Shown here piece by piece: positions 25,810 through 30,231 of a stretch of DNA of 64,000 bases; position 1 is the stretch's first letter, and each line of letters opens with the position of its first letter. Source of the stretch: an uncultured Candidatus Saccharibacteria bacterium (GTDB lineage Bacteria > Patescibacteriota > Minisyncoccia > UBA6257 > 2-01-FULL-56-20); assembly GCA_964360585.1 (NCBI GenBank), contig CAYHXC010000006.1, positions 8,256 through 72,255 of the forward strand, in the 5' to 3' direction. The notes under the pieces are model-generated. The model saw only the letters and a program-made list of their open reading frames with translations. It was not told the DNA's origin and did not search any database. A program made the translations under genes and the position numbers.

Positions 25810-25862
25810 ATATTTAGTCCAGTTCATTGATAAAACCCGCATATTTCTTTATATTGAGGTTT

Positions 25863-27782
25863 ATGACCTTAGCTGAAGTGCGGACAAAATACTTGGAGTT
25901 TTTTAAGGCTCGCGGACACGTGATTATTCCCGCATCTTCGCTTCTACCAGAAGGGGATGCGACCACGCTTTTTACCGGTTCGGGAATGCAGCCGCTTTTG
26001 CCGTTCTTATTGGGAGAAACACATCCCGAAGGGAAACGTCTGACTGATTCGCAGAAAAGTTTTCGCGCTGAAGATATCGAAGAGATTGGCGACAATCGTC
26101 ACACCACGTTTTTCGAGATGCTCGGAAACTGGTCATTGGGCGATTATTTTAAAGCGGAACAGGTTCCGTGGATGTTCGAGTTTTTAACCGAGGAGGTTCG
26201 GCTCGACCCGAATAAGTTGTACATTACTTGCTTCATTGGCGCGCCGGAGTATGACATTCCCAAAGATACTGAAGCCGGCGATCTTTGGAAGAAAGCTTTT
26301 GAGGCAAAAGGAATTAAAGCCGACGAAGCCGATATCGGTTCTGAAGCGGATGGCTACAGCCGCGGTATGAATCCCGGTGAGCGTATTTTTTACTACGACG
26401 GTTCGAAGAACTGGTGGAATCGAGGAAAAACCGGACCGGCTACAACGCCCGTCGGCGATCCGTGCGGACCGGACTCGGAGATGTTTTATGATTTCGGCCC
26501 TACGACAAGCTCAGGGCAAGCACGGCACGACGAAAAATTTGGCAAGCACTGTCATCCGAACTGCGACTGCGGACGATTTATGGAAGTGGGCAACAATGTT
26601 TTTATGGCCTACTTTAAGGAAGCCGAAGGAAAGTTTATTCCGCTTAAGTCAAAAAATATTGATCATGGTTCGGGCCTTGAGCGTATTGCGGCCGCTACGA
26701 ATAATGATCCCGATGTTTTCCATTTGGATGTGTTCCAGAAAATGCGTGAAAAATTGGCCACGTTTTCCAAGGAGCAGTTCACAGAAAAAGATACACGGCG
26801 CGTGCGCGTTATCTTAGACCACCTTCGCGGCGCTACATTTTTGGTTTCTGATGGCGTGGAAGTTTCGAACAAAGGACAAGGCTACGTTTTGCGACGGTTG
26901 GTGCGGCGAGCGATGGCCCATGCCCGACTTTTGAATCTCGAGGCTGGCTGGGTGGAGGAGTTGGTGAAGGTTGTTTCGGAATCGTATCGCGAGGCCTATC
27001 CGGACTTGGGCGCAAAAACAGAAGCAATCGTTATTGCCTTAAATACTGAGTTTGAAAAATTCTCGCGAACCCTGGAGCGGGGATTTCTCGAGTTTCAGAA
27101 ACTAGAGACCATTTCCGGCAAAGACGCTTTTGATCTGCATCAGTCGTACGGATTTCCCTTTGAGCTGACCAAAGAACTAGGCGTGGAAGCGGGGAAAGTT
27201 ATTGACGAGGCCGAGTTCAAAAGTGAGTTCGAGAAACATCAGGAGATTTCCCGGGCCGGCCAGGAGAAGAAATTTGGCGGGCACGGCTTGCTTTTGGATA
27301 CGGGAGAAATTAAAGCTCGTGATGAGAAGGAGTTGGTTGTGGTAACACGACTGCACACCGCGACGCACATGCTTCAACAGGCCTTGCGCGATGTTTTGGG
27401 GCCAGAGGTGAAACAAGCGGGTTCGGATATTACTGTTGAGCGAACACGTTTTGACTTTACCTTCGGACGTAAACTGACGCCTGAGGAGGTTAAGAAGGTT
27501 GAGGAGCGGGTGAATGAAAAAATTGTGGAAGACTTGAAGGTCCAGAAAGTAGTTATGCCGAAAGCCGAGGCTGAAAAAACTGGCGCTTTATTTTTCTTCA
27601 AGCAAAAATATCCGGATCCGGTAAATGTCTACTATATGGGCAATGATTTAGAAACTGCCTGGAGTAAGGAGTTTTGTGGTGGACCGCATGTCACGCATAC
27701 GGCCGAAGTTTTGAAATTCAAAATCGCCAAAGAAGAGGCCGTTGCTGCCGGTGTGCGGCGTATTAGAGGGGTAGTGGAGTAA
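25863..27782 (+). CDS. alaS: alanyl-tRNA synthetase, short form (catalytic plus editing domains; no C-Ala domain)
   Basis: RHTTFFEMLGNWSLGDYFK and the class II core; editing-domain HxxxH ...HTATHMLQQAL... and CGGPHV motifs. About 640 aa versus ~870 typical. GAGG RBS before ATGACC. Confidence 0.88.
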   Translation: MTLAEVRTKYLEFFKARGHVIIPASSLLPEGDATTLFTGSGMQPLLPFLLGETHPEGKRLTDSQKSFRAEDIEEIGDNRHTTFFEMLGNWSLGDYFKAEQVPWMFEFLTEEVRLDPNKLYITCFIGAPEYDIPKDTEAGDLWKKAFEAKGIKADEADIGSEADGYSRGMNPGERIFYYDGSKNWWNRGKTGPATTPVGDPCGPDSEMFYDFGPTTSSGQARHDEKFGKHCHPNCDCGRFMEVGNNVFMAYFKEAEGKFIPLKSKNIDHGSGLERIAAATNNDPDVFHLDVFQKMREKLATFSKEQFTEKDTRRVRVILDHLRGATFLVSDGVEVSNKGQGYVLRRLVRRAMAHARLLNLEAGWVEELVKVVSESYREAYPDLGAKTEAIVIALNTEFEKFSRTLERGFLEFQKLETISGKDAFDLHQSYGFPFELTKELGVEAGKVIDEAEFKSEFEKHQEISRAGQEKKFGGHGLLLDTGEIKARDEKELVVVTRLHTATHMLQQALRDVLGPEVKQAGSDITVERTRFDFTFGRKLTPEEVKKVEERVNEKIVEDLKVQKVVMPKAEAEKTGALFFFKQKYPDPVNVYYMGNDLETAWSKEFCGGPHVTHTAEVLKFKIAKEEAVAAGVRRIRGVVE

Positions 27783-27870: not shown

Positions 27871-28218
27871 ATGCAAACTCAGCGCGCAACGTATGGCGCA
27901 CTAACATTAACTGCTATCCCGTTTGTTCTCCTGCCGATCCTTGCCCAGATGGTAAAAGCCAATCCCGCTCATGTAAACTACTGGATGCATCAGGATCTAG
28001 AAAGTGCGTCGTTACTATTGGGCTTTTCCGGATACGGCTTCTTTGCCTTAAGCCTCTTGATATCAGTAGCCTCCGTGGTGAAGGGAATAAGACAGCACCA
28101 TCGGCTTAAAATCTACATTTGGTTTGTTCTGATCGCCGTTACCGACATTCTGCTGGCATGGGTATGGGAACCGATCGCCAGTTGGGCACTAGCTGGATGT
28201 TGCGATCTACTCTCCTGA
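27871..28218 (+). CDS. hypothetical membrane protein (115 aa, 3 TM)
   Basis: ORF track. Hydrophobic helices. Lies between alaS and the alaS 3' remnant. Confidence 0.4.
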   Translation: MQTQRATYGALTLTAIPFVLLPILAQMVKANPAHVNYWMHQDLESASLLLGFSGYGFFALSLLISVASVVKGIRQHHRLKIYIWFVLIAVTDILLAWVWEPIASWALAGCCDLLS

Positions 28219-28279
28219 CCACACGCACCGCCGAAGTTTTGAAATTCAAGATTGCTAAATTCGCGGAGTAGTGGAGTAG
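28218..28279 (+). pseudogene. diverged remnant of the alaS 3' end (reads ...TAEVLKFKIAKFAE* against alaS ...HTAEVLKFKIAKEEAVAAGVRRIRGVVE*)
   Basis: ~55-nt direct repeat of 27690-27782 with mostly synonymous differences (AAAATCGCCAAA vs AAGATTGCTAAA, both K-I-A-K), an internal deletion, and the shared terminal GTAGTGGAGTA(A/G). Confidence 0.6.
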
Positions 28280-28422: not shown

Positions 28423-29199
28423 TTATTTCTGCTCCTCCTTTGAAAAAGCTTTGACGATCGGTTCCATATTGCCATCGAGGATTTTTTCAATATTGTGGAA
28501 TTTCTTACCGATGCGGTGATCGGTGATGCGATCTTCGGGGAAGTTATAGGTACGGATCTTCTCGGCGCGTTCTGATGATCCAACCTGCTCGCGGCGAAGG
28601 CCGCCTACCTTTGCTTCAGCTTCGGATTTATTGATTTCGAAAAGCTTAGCGCGCAAGACATCCATCGCTTTTTCACGGTTGGCGTGCTGTTGCCGTTCGG
28701 TGCGGGAAGAAACGACAATACCTGTCGGTTTGTGGAGGATACGGACCGCGCTTTCGATCTTGTTCACATTCTGACCGCCCGGTCCGCCGGCGCGGGAGAA
28801 GGTAACCTCGAGTTCGTGGTCCTTGATGTCCACTTCTTTGGCTTCCACCTGGGGCATGACGATGACTGAAGCGGTCGAGGTGTGCACGCGGCCGGATCGT
28901 TCGGTTTTTGGAACACGCTGAACGCGGTGGACACCTGATTCTTGTTTTAAGGATTCATATGGCCCCGCTTGTCCTGATTTATCCTGAGCAGAGTCGAAGG
29001 AGCTGGTCGAAGGACTGCCGACCACTTCGGCGATCAAGGTTTTAAATCCGCCTTGGGTGTTTTCACTGGAGTCGATGACGCTGAACTTCCAGCCTTTGAT
29101 TTGGGCATACCGTTGGTACATCCGGGCCAGGTCGCCGGCAAAAAGCCCAGCCTCGTCGCCGCCCGTCCCAGCTCTAATTTCTAAAATAACTTTATTCAT
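28423..29199 (-). CDS. prfA: peptide chain release factor 1 homolog lacking N-terminal domain 1
   Basis: Starts at [24 protein letters not shown], equivalent to E. coli RF1 residue ~110. [17 protein letters not shown] carries the PxT-region and GGQ is present ([13 protein letters not shown]). 258 aa versus ~360. Confidence 0.8.
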
Positions 29200-29270
29200 A
29201 ATTGAAATGGGACGAGGCTCGCCTTGAGGCGGCCGGTTCCCGCCCTTACTTCCAAAATGAGTTTGTTCAT
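29196..29270 (-). pseudogene. diverged tandem copy of the prfA 5' end, forming a 24-codon upstream ORF ([24 protein letters not shown]) whose TGA overlaps the prfA ATG
   Basis: ATGAACAAACTCATTTTGGAAGTAAGGGCGGGAACCGGC matches ATGAATAAAGTTATTTTAGAAATTAGAGCTGGGACGGGC of the gene. Most differences fall at third codon positions. Confidence 0.55.
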
Positions 29271-29344
29271 GGATGCCCCTATTGTACGGTAGAAACTACC
29301 CGATCAGCAATAGGAATAAAAAAATCCCATGCACATGCCTGGGA

Positions 29345-29737
29345 TTATAATTCAGTATCTAGAAAGATCGGACGCTTCTTTATGGGGGCGATAAGTTTCT
29401 GGATTTCCGGGCGTAGAACTTCGTAATCGAACCCCAAGACATCACAGACATTTCGGAAAGCGAAAGGCCAGCTTCTGTCGTCAGAGAGTACCCATTCCAA
29501 GGCTTCTTGTTGTATTGCTTGTTTTTTTCGTACTGGTCCAACCTCAACTACTTTTCCTCCGATAGCATTAAGGGCGTCCTCTAGAACAGCCACGCACAGC
29601 ATGTAGCAAGGCGTCTCCTTAGGTGAGAGATCAAACCACTGTTCTGGAAGAAGAATGACTGGAACAAAGAGCCTCAGATGCCAATCTTGGTGATTGTATC
29701 GCTCAATCGCGATGCTGATTGTTTTCCTATTCGCCAT
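29345..29737 (-). CDS. hypothetical protein
   Basis: ORF track. No family recognised. Confidence 0.45.
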   Translation of the reverse strand: MANRKTISIAIERYNHQDWHLRLFVPVILLPEQWFDLSPKETPCYMLCVAVLEDALNAIGGKVVEVGPVRKKQAIQQEALEWVLSDDRSWPFAFRNVCDVLGFDYEVLRPEIQKLIAPIKKRPIFLDTEL

Positions 29738-29841
29738 ACACCATCCACCCCCGCATGATTAATAACTTTTCGTATTTTGCATCTATCGTTTTATCTTGTC
29801 AACATTTACTTTCTCTTTTTTTCTTGTGCTACAATAAACAT

Positions 29842-30231
29842 ATGACTGAGTCACCCCTCGTCCTGATTGTAGATGACGAACAGAACTTCAGAGATATTAT
29901 TTCGGCGGTTTTAGGGGCGAGCGGTTTTCGGATAGCGACGGCGGCGAATGGTGAGGAGGCCTTAGCTCGAGTGGAGGAAAGTAAGCCGGACCTTATCTTG
30001 CTGGACATGAAGATGCCAGTGATGGATGGGGCGACGATGCTGACCAGGCTGAAAGAAAAGGAAGGGCTAAAGGACATCAAGGTTTTGTTTTTGAGCAGTT
30101 TTGGTGATGCGCGAGAAGGGGCACACAACGCTGATCAGCACTTTGCCAAAGAAATGGGCGCGATCGACTATATTAATAAGACTGAAATTGATACGCAGTT
30201 AATTCCGAAGATAAAAGCTCTTTTTGGATAA
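29842..30231 (+). CDS. single-domain response regulator (CheY-like receiver only)
   Basis: LIVDDEQNFRDII...DLILLDMKMPVMDG...KVLFLSS carries the phospho-acceptor Asp context. No output domain. Confidence 0.75.
   Translation: MTESPLVLIVDDEQNFRDIISAVLGASGFRIATAANGEEALARVEESKPDLILLDMKMPVMDGATMLTRLKEKEGLKDIKVLFLSSFGDAREGAHNADQHFAKEMGAIDYINKTEIDTQLIPKIKALFG

Follow-up and report, generated by a model that had tools for sequence, protein, structure and literature searches.

We analysed a 64,000-nt stretch of contig CAYHXC010000006.1 (the window, by which we mean this whole stretch), from an ultra-small groundwater bacterium of the Patescibacteria (Paceibacteria/Parcubacteria), and found that prfA, the gene for bacterial release factor 1 (RF1), is preceded on the minus strand by a 24-codon upstream open reading frame (uORF) that begins with a copy of the gene's own first codons and ends in a stop codon overlapping the prfA start (Table 1). 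The same design recurs upstream of prfA, and of no other gene, in more distant relatives. We lean towards reading it as a translated, structured leader that couples or gates the translation of RF1. The RF1 that follows it lacks the N-terminal domain 1 of the canonical protein, a loss that extends throughout the clade.

The initial annotation had described the uORF as a diverged copy of the gene start, about 70 nt or 24 codons long, ending in a TGA that overlaps the prfA ATG. The overlap is as described (ATGA, 29199..29196), and a diverged copy does lead up to the ATG, but the clear copy covers codons 1-13 only (39 nt; the head). The remaining 32 nt of the uORF have been remodelled into part of a GC-rich RNA element, so the uORF is not a plain copy of 24 codons. 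Over the 36 nt past the shared ATG the head and RF1 are 72% identical, and their 10 differences comprise eight at third, two at first and none at second codon positions. The BLOSUM score of this mimicry is 48, compared to a maximum of 27 in 244 control regions, and it is unique among the 87 ORFs of at least 100 amino acids in the window, the next best of which scores 25. Because the identical leader is found in three independent assemblies, it is not an assembly artefact. A simple tandem duplication that included the upstream region was rejected, as the sequence following the head is unlike the sequence upstream of it.

We scanned about 135 distinct prfA loci for such leaders; loci from relatives carry L-numbers (L004, L009 and so on) as labels. 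The same design is present in 12 further, more distant genomes (L009, L012, L028, L041, L045, L074, L077, L081, L094, L114, L135 and L167), and the leader-bearing set therefore consists of 13 distinct genomes including the window, with 14 uORFs–L114 contributes two. The 12 correspond to about 10% of the clade, and eight of them are among the 80 related genomes in our species-representative set (Jorgensen-, Lipton-, Wolfe-, Brenner- and Colwellbacteria, and other Paceibacterota). Among the 702 ORFs of all loci, prfA is the sole gene with a mimicking uORF. We can reject a general habit of duplicating gene starts, which would have left traces at the approximately 570 non-prfA ORFs, where there are none. 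The consensus for the heads is an ATG and then about 9-16 codons for [NDQ]K[ILV]I[LM]E[IV]RAGxG. Of the 13 genomes, 12 keep the in-frame ATG and open frame of the uORF; the start in L074 is frameshifted. In 9 of the 14 uORFs the stop codon is within 8 nt of the next start, in the form ATGA, ATGNNTAA or TAA-C-ATG.

Two of the leader-bearing loci have further peculiarities. In L114 the two mimicking uORFs are in tandem (1363-1497), the second being MDKIILEIRAGARLATATLL, and each stop overlaps the next start (ATGGATAA, ATGA); the tail of the first uORF, GGCGAGCCUCGCCCC, and the central part of the second, GGGGCGAGGCUCGCC, are perfectly complementary along 15 nt. L009 differs from L025 and L110, two leaderless loci with 92% nucleotide identity to it over the gene, by a segment of about 125 nt (1539-1663) with ACGGGC on both borders, which contains two hairpins and an A/T-rich replacement start (26% GC in a 59% GC genome).

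The head is followed by a GC-rich segment that we call the tail. In six genomes–the window, L045, L094, L114 (twice), L135 and L167–a motif search found tails of one family, A, containing GGCCGCC..GGCGAGCCUCG(C/U)CC and always located alongside a head. Three other genomes have a family B tail, GGCUUGCCCGCCAUAGCC. The motif search found no tail without an intact head. The family A tail is read in three different frames, and it is untranslated in L135, whose uORF stops inside the hairpin loop; the loops and spacers of these leaders are unrelated between genomes. By this pattern, the family A tail is conserved at the level of RNA. Recent horizontal spread of one cassette was rejected as its source, because the leaders have diverged in their loops and spacers, and the attached RF1 starts at their synonymous sites. 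In an informative-site scan for a recombinant origin, the 5' part of the window's prfA is a clade-type gene except for codons 8-9 and a few scattered family-A-type sites. No known RNA family was found in the window leader by comparison to Rfam (best E = 0.055, well under the gathering score).

The tail can form either of two alternative helices. The leader alone is predicted by RNAfold to fold at -21.8 kcal/mol, and its hairpin helix, in which the tail pairs with approximately codons 10-14 of the head, is also present in L045, L094, L135 and L167, with variable loops. The tail may instead pair with the equivalent codons of RF1, where the match is equal to or better than that with the head: in the window, CGUCCC and GCC of the tail form 6/6 and 3/3 pairs with GGGACG and GGC of RF1, versus 4/6 with the head. 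A repeat finder independently picked out the same partners as an inverted repeat (29143-29157 and 29211-29225; 15 nt, 87% complementarity), and the minimum free energy (MFE) structure of the leader plus 66 nt of RF1 uses the long-range pairing between tail and RF1 and leaves the RF1 AUG in a loop. The tail co-varies with RF1 codons 11-13, the pairs being CGUCCC:GGGACG in the window, CGCAUC:GGUGCG in L045, CGCCCU:GGGGCG in both L094 and L167, and CGCUCC:GGAGCG in L135. Unrelated leader families have the same geometry, in which the 3' end of the leader pairs with early RF1 codons (about 8-19 across leaders)–for example, there are 12 consecutive pairs in L009 (by RNAduplex), CCUCC:GGAGG in L028, and a U-tract pairing with RF1 codons 6-9 in L081.

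We also compared the start signals of the two reading frames. A candidate promoter, below the threshold of our consensus scan, ends 10 nt before the uORF ATG, an arrangement that suggests a leaderless or nearly leaderless prfA mRNA. Across the leaders, a -10 box (a match of at least 5/6, ending 6-12 nt upstream) is present before 8 of 13 uORF ATGs and before no RF1 ATG that follows a leader. In the window, the scan found no -10-like box before the RF1 ATG, nor is there a Shine-Dalgarno (SD) sequence before the RF1 AUG. The closest leaderless lineages, where the upstream sequence was read, have a -10-like box directly before the RF1 ATG. The window thus has the structure expected of termination-reinitiation coupling, an overlapping stop and start with no independent SD sequence or -10 box for the second ATG. 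The junction UUA UGA A is not slippery, and the frame of the uORF relative to prfA is 1 or 2 depending on the genome. A programmed frameshift joining the uORF to prfA was rejected, since the frames vary, most leaders contain stops in the prfA frame, and prfA has its own ATG and a full N-terminus. Over the window as a whole, an SD-like motif precedes only 14 of 55 genes (background 13%), and a box resembling TATAAT or TACAAT is found 6-12 nt ahead of many ATGs (for example those at 999, 5475, 7076, 9985, 13950, 16527, 33514 and 51796), which suggests that leaderless or near-leaderless mRNAs are widespread in this genome.

The two copies of the RF1 start differ in base composition. Over 8 codons, the RF1 copies behind leaders have 23% GC and 26% GC at third codon positions (GC3), compared to 32% GC and 46% GC3 in leaderless RF1 starts (P = 1.5 x 10−4) and 37% GC and 49% GC3 in their own heads (paired P = 0.002). 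In GC3 the heads therefore match ordinary RF1 starts; the window values are 50% for the head and 0% for the RF1 copy. To judge from these comparisons, the RF1 copy behind a leader is recoded to A/U-ending codons: the head looks like a native RF1 start, and the downstream copy looks like a start adapted to an internal, unstructured position.

The initial annotation had offered two origins for the arrangement, a fossil of a tandem duplication or a functional leader that couples translation. We disfavour a one-off fossil and favour the translated leader, because of its recurrence, its restriction to prfA, the compensatory base changes, the start/stop geometry and the A/U recoding; we regard it as probable, though not by a great deal, and the coupling itself is inferred from sequence. 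On this reading, transcription would probably start a few bases upstream of the uORF AUG. Ribosomes would translate the 24-codon uORF, whose first 13 codons are a native-type RF1 start, would unwind the GC-rich hairpin made by head codons 10-14 and the tail, and would terminate at the UGA that overlaps the RF1 AUG. That AUG, without a -10-like box or SD sequence of its own, would lie in an A/U-rich loop closed by the helix between the tail and RF1 codons 11-19. RF1 would then be made by reinitiation, and its synthesis would most likely depend on translation of the uORF, through termination-reinitiation and unmasking. The two helices are mutually exclusive, and by competing for the tail they could set the amount of RF1. 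Translation of the uORF and the direction of any regulation are likewise what we infer.

Several observations weigh against this reading. The predicted fold of the window leader has a z-score of only -1.67. The stems of family A are mostly invariant, and the covariation amounts to three positions in six sequences. The duplex energy between the upstream 47 nt and positions +12 to +60 of RF1 has a median of -26.8 kcal/mol at leader loci and -16.0 kcal/mol at 115 leaderless loci (P = 3 x 10−4), but this contrast is partly an effect of GC content. The seven closest lineages (L004, L088-L090 and L168-L170; 78-84% amino acid identity) have no uORF, so the leader is dispensable and evolutionarily unstable, and the taxa that do have it are scattered on the RF1 tree. 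Comparison with relatives, which the initial annotation had proposed as a check on the uORF, thus gave a divided answer: the closest lineages lack it, whereas the 12 distant genomes share its design and five of them have the window's tail motif. The designs of the leaders differ, with a stop inside the hairpin loop in L135 and a terminator-like hairpin in L081, so one common logic is not assured. The stop codons of the 14 uORFs are TGA (5) or TAA (9) and never TAG, and RF1-specific sensing is therefore not indicated.

The patchy distribution and the absence from close relatives are also what would be expected of a recombination scar or passenger cassette, an explanation that we regard as possible but less than probable. 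On that view the native prfA start would have become the head when recombination inserted or duplicated a module consisting of the tail and a replacement start and so moved it upstream, with no regulatory benefit. The head would resemble RF1 because it recently was RF1, and the arrangement would be tolerated, or spread by homologous recombination, and lost by recombination between head and RF1. Leaderless close relatives do begin RF1 with a head-type sequence, so that presence and absence of the leader differ by a precise indel between two repeats. The RF1 starts of L025 and L110 match the head of L009 at 37 of 39 nt, most leaderless relatives of the window have the head-type start ..LEVRAGTG, and in L089 the amino acids of the RF1 start are identical to those of the window head. 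The ordinary composition of the heads points the same way, as does the frameshifted start in L074. In family A, differences at first, second and third codon positions number 57/15/100 among heads and 29/0/93 among RF1 copies; the heads are constrained, yet more relaxed than the RF1 copies. There is also a dead duplicate of the 3' end of alaS, with mostly third-position differences, 150 nt from prfA. A scar without function does not, however, readily explain why the family A tail is old (as its diverged loops, spacers and synonymous sites indicate) and yet has conserved stems that covary with the resident RF1 codons, why every tail found accompanies an intact head, why the in-frame ATG and open frame persist in all but one genome, why nothing comparable is seen at other gene starts, or why the downstream start is directionally recoded to A/U. 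Moreover, prfA is essential, so at minimum the leader must permit RF1 to be translated.

The RF1-likeness of the head may reflect either a displaced native start or a functional nascent peptide. In the latter case the head would be an arrest or sensor peptide, like SecM, TnaC or MifM, and ribosomes would pause where head and tail meet, or on the stop codon, which would select one helix and set RF1 output. In favour of this, the differences between a head and its own gene total 133 over all leaders, of which 95 fall on the third codon position and only 6 on the second, and in the A/U-rich part there are 21 nonsynonymous codon differences, compared to 65 expected under neutrality. Heads are closer to the N-terminus of their own gene than to those of other genomes (mean rank 0.145, permutation P < 2 x 10−4), they are still conserved in sets chosen by the tail alone, which have no head ascertainment bias, and the hairpin begins exactly where the mimicry ends. 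The same pattern would be expected, though, if the heads had been functional RF1 starts until recently. The predominance of third-position differences, to which the initial annotation had rightly drawn attention, is no proof of function, and it cannot be read simply as selection on the peptide, because the dead alaS duplicate has it too, the starts of leaderless genes are of the head type, and the divergence is directional. RF1 itself begins with this N-terminus and evidently causes no arrest when it is translated, no residues past the head are conserved, the uORF of L135 stops two codons past the head whereas others extend for 8-30 codons, and no ligand or signal can be named. We consider a regulatory nascent peptide unlikely. 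We are equally sceptical of a more elaborate form, in which the leader would be devoted to feedback on RF1, as the frameshift is for RF2, and the nascent uORF peptide, kept identical to the N-terminal strand of RF1, would serve as a ribosome-borne sensor or monitoring substrate that chooses the helix; at its extreme, ribosomes would hop across the 71-nt gap and the peptide would itself become the RF1 N-terminus.

Such translational bypassing, with take-off at the last head codon, GGC, before the hairpin and landing on a GGC of the RF1 copy, would make the head the N-terminus of part of the RF1 pool, and so would account for the peptide-level conservation of heads and their co-variation with the gene. 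The codons match in the window (GGC at 29234..29232, and at RF1 codons 13 and 14), the hairpin starts at the take-off site, and in 10 of the 14 heads the mimicry ends on GGC. Nevertheless, we find hopping very hard to believe: no stop codon follows the take-off codon, the nascent chain would be just 13 amino acids long at take-off, and GGC occurs inside the gap too. The gap (58-132 nt) holds a complete, conserved and A/U-optimised start, which makes a hop unnecessary, and in L094, L077 and L081 the codons mismatch or landing would delete conserved residues.

The hairpin might alternatively act on transcription, as an intrinsic terminator unless covered by a ribosome translating the uORF. The best case for such a ribosome-dependent attenuator is L081, where, inside the uORF, AUUUUUAAUUU comes after a hairpin of about 12 bp (1285-1322; GGCC-CUGCCUGCC/GGCAGGCAG-GCGCC) that resembles an intrinsic terminator and stops 11 nt short of the RF1 AUG. 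In the window too, a U-rich stretch, CAUUUCAAUUAU, comes after the hairpin. However, a terminator scan found none at the window leader, the U-tract is missing after the hairpin in most leaders, and L081 alone has a convincing combination of the two. The conserved alternative partner of the tail is inside the RF1 coding region, which fits translational rather than transcriptional control. On these grounds attenuation seems to us improbable.

The RF1 encoded downstream is a short protein. The initial annotation had called it a prfA homolog without domain 1, beginning near residue 110 of E. coli RF1 and keeping the PKT and GGQ motifs, and this description stands in full. It aligns to E. coli RF1 residues 111-349 and Thermus thermophilus RF1 residues 107-344 in PDB alignments, with 42-46% identity to solved RF1s, and matches the Pfam PCRF domain (PF03462, E = 3 x 10−38) over profile positions 100-194 of 194 alone, as well as the RF-1 domain (PF00472, E = 1 x 10−37). 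Its PxT motif reads RVPKTE (residues 95-100, with PKT at 97-99), which is of the RF1 type and not the SPF of RF2; in an alignment of 25 relatives the P and T are invariant and K predominates. The PKT form is also found in human mtRF1a. The GGQ motif (residues 141-143, within GPGGQ) is invariant in the alignment of relatives. An AlphaFold (AF2) model has a pLDDT of 80 and superposes on ribosome-bound RF1 chains with TM scores of 0.74-0.76. The protein falls below the cutoffs of the NCBIfam prfA models (345.7 bits vs 400 for NF001859; 340.7 vs 423 for TIGR00019) because the approximately 105 residues of domain 1 are missing, and the prfB model gives it a lower score than these, 212 bits. An identical protein is annotated as 'PCRF domain-containing protein [Patescibacteria group bacterium]'. 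Domain 2 contains a low-complexity insertion at residues 61-78 (28966-29019, minus strand; pLDDT <50 at residues 65-76), which is absent from 240-aa relatives, and other members of the clade have variable Ser/Thr/Gly-rich insertions at the same site.

We found no way for domain 1 to be restored. A longer in-frame start was rejected, since the prfA frame has a stop 32 codons upstream of the ATG and no ATG, GTG or TTG in between. TBLASTN with E. coli RF1 found no domain-1-like sequence elsewhere in the window, and, as the initial annotation had stated, there is no separate domain-1 ORF nearby: none is present in the window or adjoining prfA in relatives, and the neighbouring ORFs have no Pfam match. 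An alternative genetic code with UGA as a sense codon was rejected. TAG closes 15 of 58 long ORFs in the window and TGA closes 10 of 58; both codons terminate genes, so the standard code is used and RF2 activity is expected. Our search for RF2 (prfB) covered the window and 170 fetched loci, and found none in them. Given the 15 ORFs that end in UAG, release at UAA and UAG would be needed from the window RF1.

The initial annotation had proposed comparing prfA loci of relatives for loss of domain 1. The loss is seen in them all, and so is not peculiar to the window locus. Every RF1 among the best 120 database matches is 237-276 aa long. In all 80 species genomes RF1 has the same length range and starts within a few residues of NKIILEIRAGxGG (..NKIILEIRAGxGG); most have an in-frame stop within 30 codons upstream, and none has a domain-1 extension. 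On this evidence, loss of domain 1 is a trait of RF1 throughout the Paceibacteria/Parcubacteria and no local accident. In a library clustered at 50% identity (whose entries have P-numbers), the short form collapses into a few clusters, and the other relatives among the matches listed are mostly RF1s of about 355 aa that align from residue 105-115 or thereabouts, with a minority that are shorter. A small number of other RF1-like cluster representatives, of 260-285 aa, start near the domain-2 start too (for example P0130, P0136, P0145, P0164, P0189 and P0223), and RF1s without domain 1, or gene fragments, may therefore exist outside the clade. PMC6514570 describes domain 1 as the part that interacts with the GTPase RF3, and its reference list includes Mora et al. 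(2003), a study of E. coli RF1 and RF2 in truncated form.

The coordinates of the prfA leader and gene are given in Table 1. Beside prfA on the other strand, the 3' end of alaS is duplicated (27692-27781 and 28220-28278, plus strand; 83-85% identity), and most differences between the copies fall at third codon positions. The second copy lacks 30 nt internally and is not in frame. Between the copies is a membrane-like ORF of 115 aa (27871-28218) that relatives lack; in the syntenic locus of L004, alaS directly adjoins prfA. The arrangement resembles a scar of recombination or insertion with a xenologous gene end. The alanyl-tRNA synthetase itself (AlaRS; 25827-27782, plus strand) is short, at 639-651 aa depending on the start chosen (632-639 aa in close relatives), and its Pfam matches are to tRNA-synt_2c and a small tRNA_SAD domain only. 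Between prfA and the response-regulator genes there is a 130-aa ORF (29345-29737, minus strand) with no Pfam or NCBIfam match and no counterpart between the regulators and prfA in L004-L007, L168 and L169. Its start overlaps a divergent ORF (29719-30231) by 19 nt.

Table 1. Features of the prfA leader and gene in the window, with the basis on which each was identified.
Feature	Coordinates	Strand	Basis
uORF, 24 codons; TGA (29198..29196) overlaps prfA ATG (29199..29197) as ATGA	29196..29270	-	Sequence; three assemblies
Head: uORF codons 1-13, copy of RF1 codons 1-13	29232..29270	-	Codon comparison; RF1 starts of relatives
Family A tail, CGCC..GGCGAGCCUCGUCCC; shared arm of two alternative helices	29209..29231	-	Motif search
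Leader hairpin: 5' arm GGGCGG..GGC (head codons) + CGCC; loop UCAA; 3' arm from tail, GGCG-a-GCC-u-CGUCCC	29209..29245	-	RNAfold
RF1 codons 11-19 (GGG ACG GGC GGC GAC GAG GCU GGG CUU), downstream partner of tail	29143..29169	-	Pairing; inverted repeat; MFE
A/U-rich loop with RF1 start: spacer AUUUCAAUU, AUG, RF1 codons 2-8 (all A/U-ending)	29176..29208	-	Sequence
Candidate promoter: TTGCTG (29310..29305), 18-nt spacer, TACAAT (29286..29281)	29281..29310	-	Read from sequence; -10 scan
prfA, 258-aa RF1 of domains 2-4 only; stop TAA (28425..28423)	28423..29199	-	ORF; translation; Pfam; NCBIfam; PDB alignments; AF2 model
PxT stop-codon recognition tripeptide, RF1 type (codons P97-K98-T99)	28903..28911	-	Translation
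Catalytic GGQ (codons G141-G142-Q143)	28771..28779	-	Translation; alignment

RF1, coupling through overlapping stops and starts, and leader ORFs with alternative helices are all known already. By contrast, the searchable literature seems to contain no description of two features: an RF1 that lacks domain 1 across a whole clade, and a prfA-specific leader ORF that copies the gene's own start. Literature searches on domain-1-less RF1 in the Candidate Phyla Radiation (CPR), or on an RF1 leader, returned nothing relevant, and we found no description there of a leader peptide that mimics the protein it regulates. We know of no mechanism that controls the synthesis of RF1, unlike the frameshift of RF2, and the recurrent prfA leader, with its conserved alternative helices and overlapping stop and start, is a concrete candidate for one that can be tested in vitro even though the hosts are uncultivated. 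It also shows how a partial 5' duplication may be turned into an expression module, with the downstream copy recoded to A/U, and it calls for caution in annotation, because the head can revert to being the real N-terminus after a precise deletion. The short RF1 with which, it appears, an entire class of ultra-small bacteria terminates translation is a natural experiment on the need for domain 1, and possibly for recycling by RF3.

Compared to other bacterial RF1s (prfA; TIGR00019/PRK00591), the window protein has domains 2, 3 and 4 with the PxT and GGQ motifs, and superposes on ribosome-bound RF1, but like the rest of its clade it lacks the N-terminal helical domain 1 (about 105 aa) that interacts with RF3 and the L11 stalk. 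It corresponds to engineered domain-1 truncations of E. coli RF1 and RF2, which reportedly still recognise stop codons and release peptides, except that it is natural and clade-wide. PrfH and ArfB are also members of the release factor family without domain 1, but the window protein is far under the cutoffs for both (75.8 vs 166.65 for prfH; 51.5 vs 100 for ArfB), has a much better score as RF1, and keeps the full codon-recognition domain with PxT.

The closest parallel to the leader within the release factors is the +1 frameshift leader of prfB (RF2). There too, a release factor gene follows a short ORF, about 25 codons in length, which terminates at UGA and whose product is the N-terminal sequence of the factor itself; expression hinges on how the ribosome behaves at this stop codon, as we propose for prfA. 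In prfB, however, a single gene is read in two frames across a CUU UGA C slippery site, whereas the prfA leader consists of separate ORFs with no such site, the relative frame varies by genome, and in most leaders there are stops in the prfA frame. The prfA leaders stop at UGA or UAA and never at the RF1-specific UAG, in contrast to the autoregulation of prfB. Coupling by termination-reinitiation, or by long-range masking, is exemplified by MS2 coat-replicase and rpmI-rplT, and the prfA leader resembles these in its overlapping stop and start (ATGA), in having a downstream start without an SD sequence, and in the helix between the upstream coding region and the downstream initiation region, which ribosomes would have to melt as they translate. 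It differs from them in that the upstream ORF is a copy of the start of the downstream gene, the prfA start codon is in a loop and not a stem, and there is a second, competing helix between head and tail. With trpL, TnaC, SecM, MifM and ErmCL it shares a short leader ORF, alternative RNA helices and, possibly, conservation of the peptide at the amino acid level, but it has no regulatory codon runs, no definable arrest motif and, in the window, no clear terminator, and its peptide mimics the regulated protein. Of the features of T4 gene 60-type bypass, the window has the GGC/GGC pair and the hairpin and lacks the stop after the take-off codon; in L094, L077 and L081 the codons do not match.

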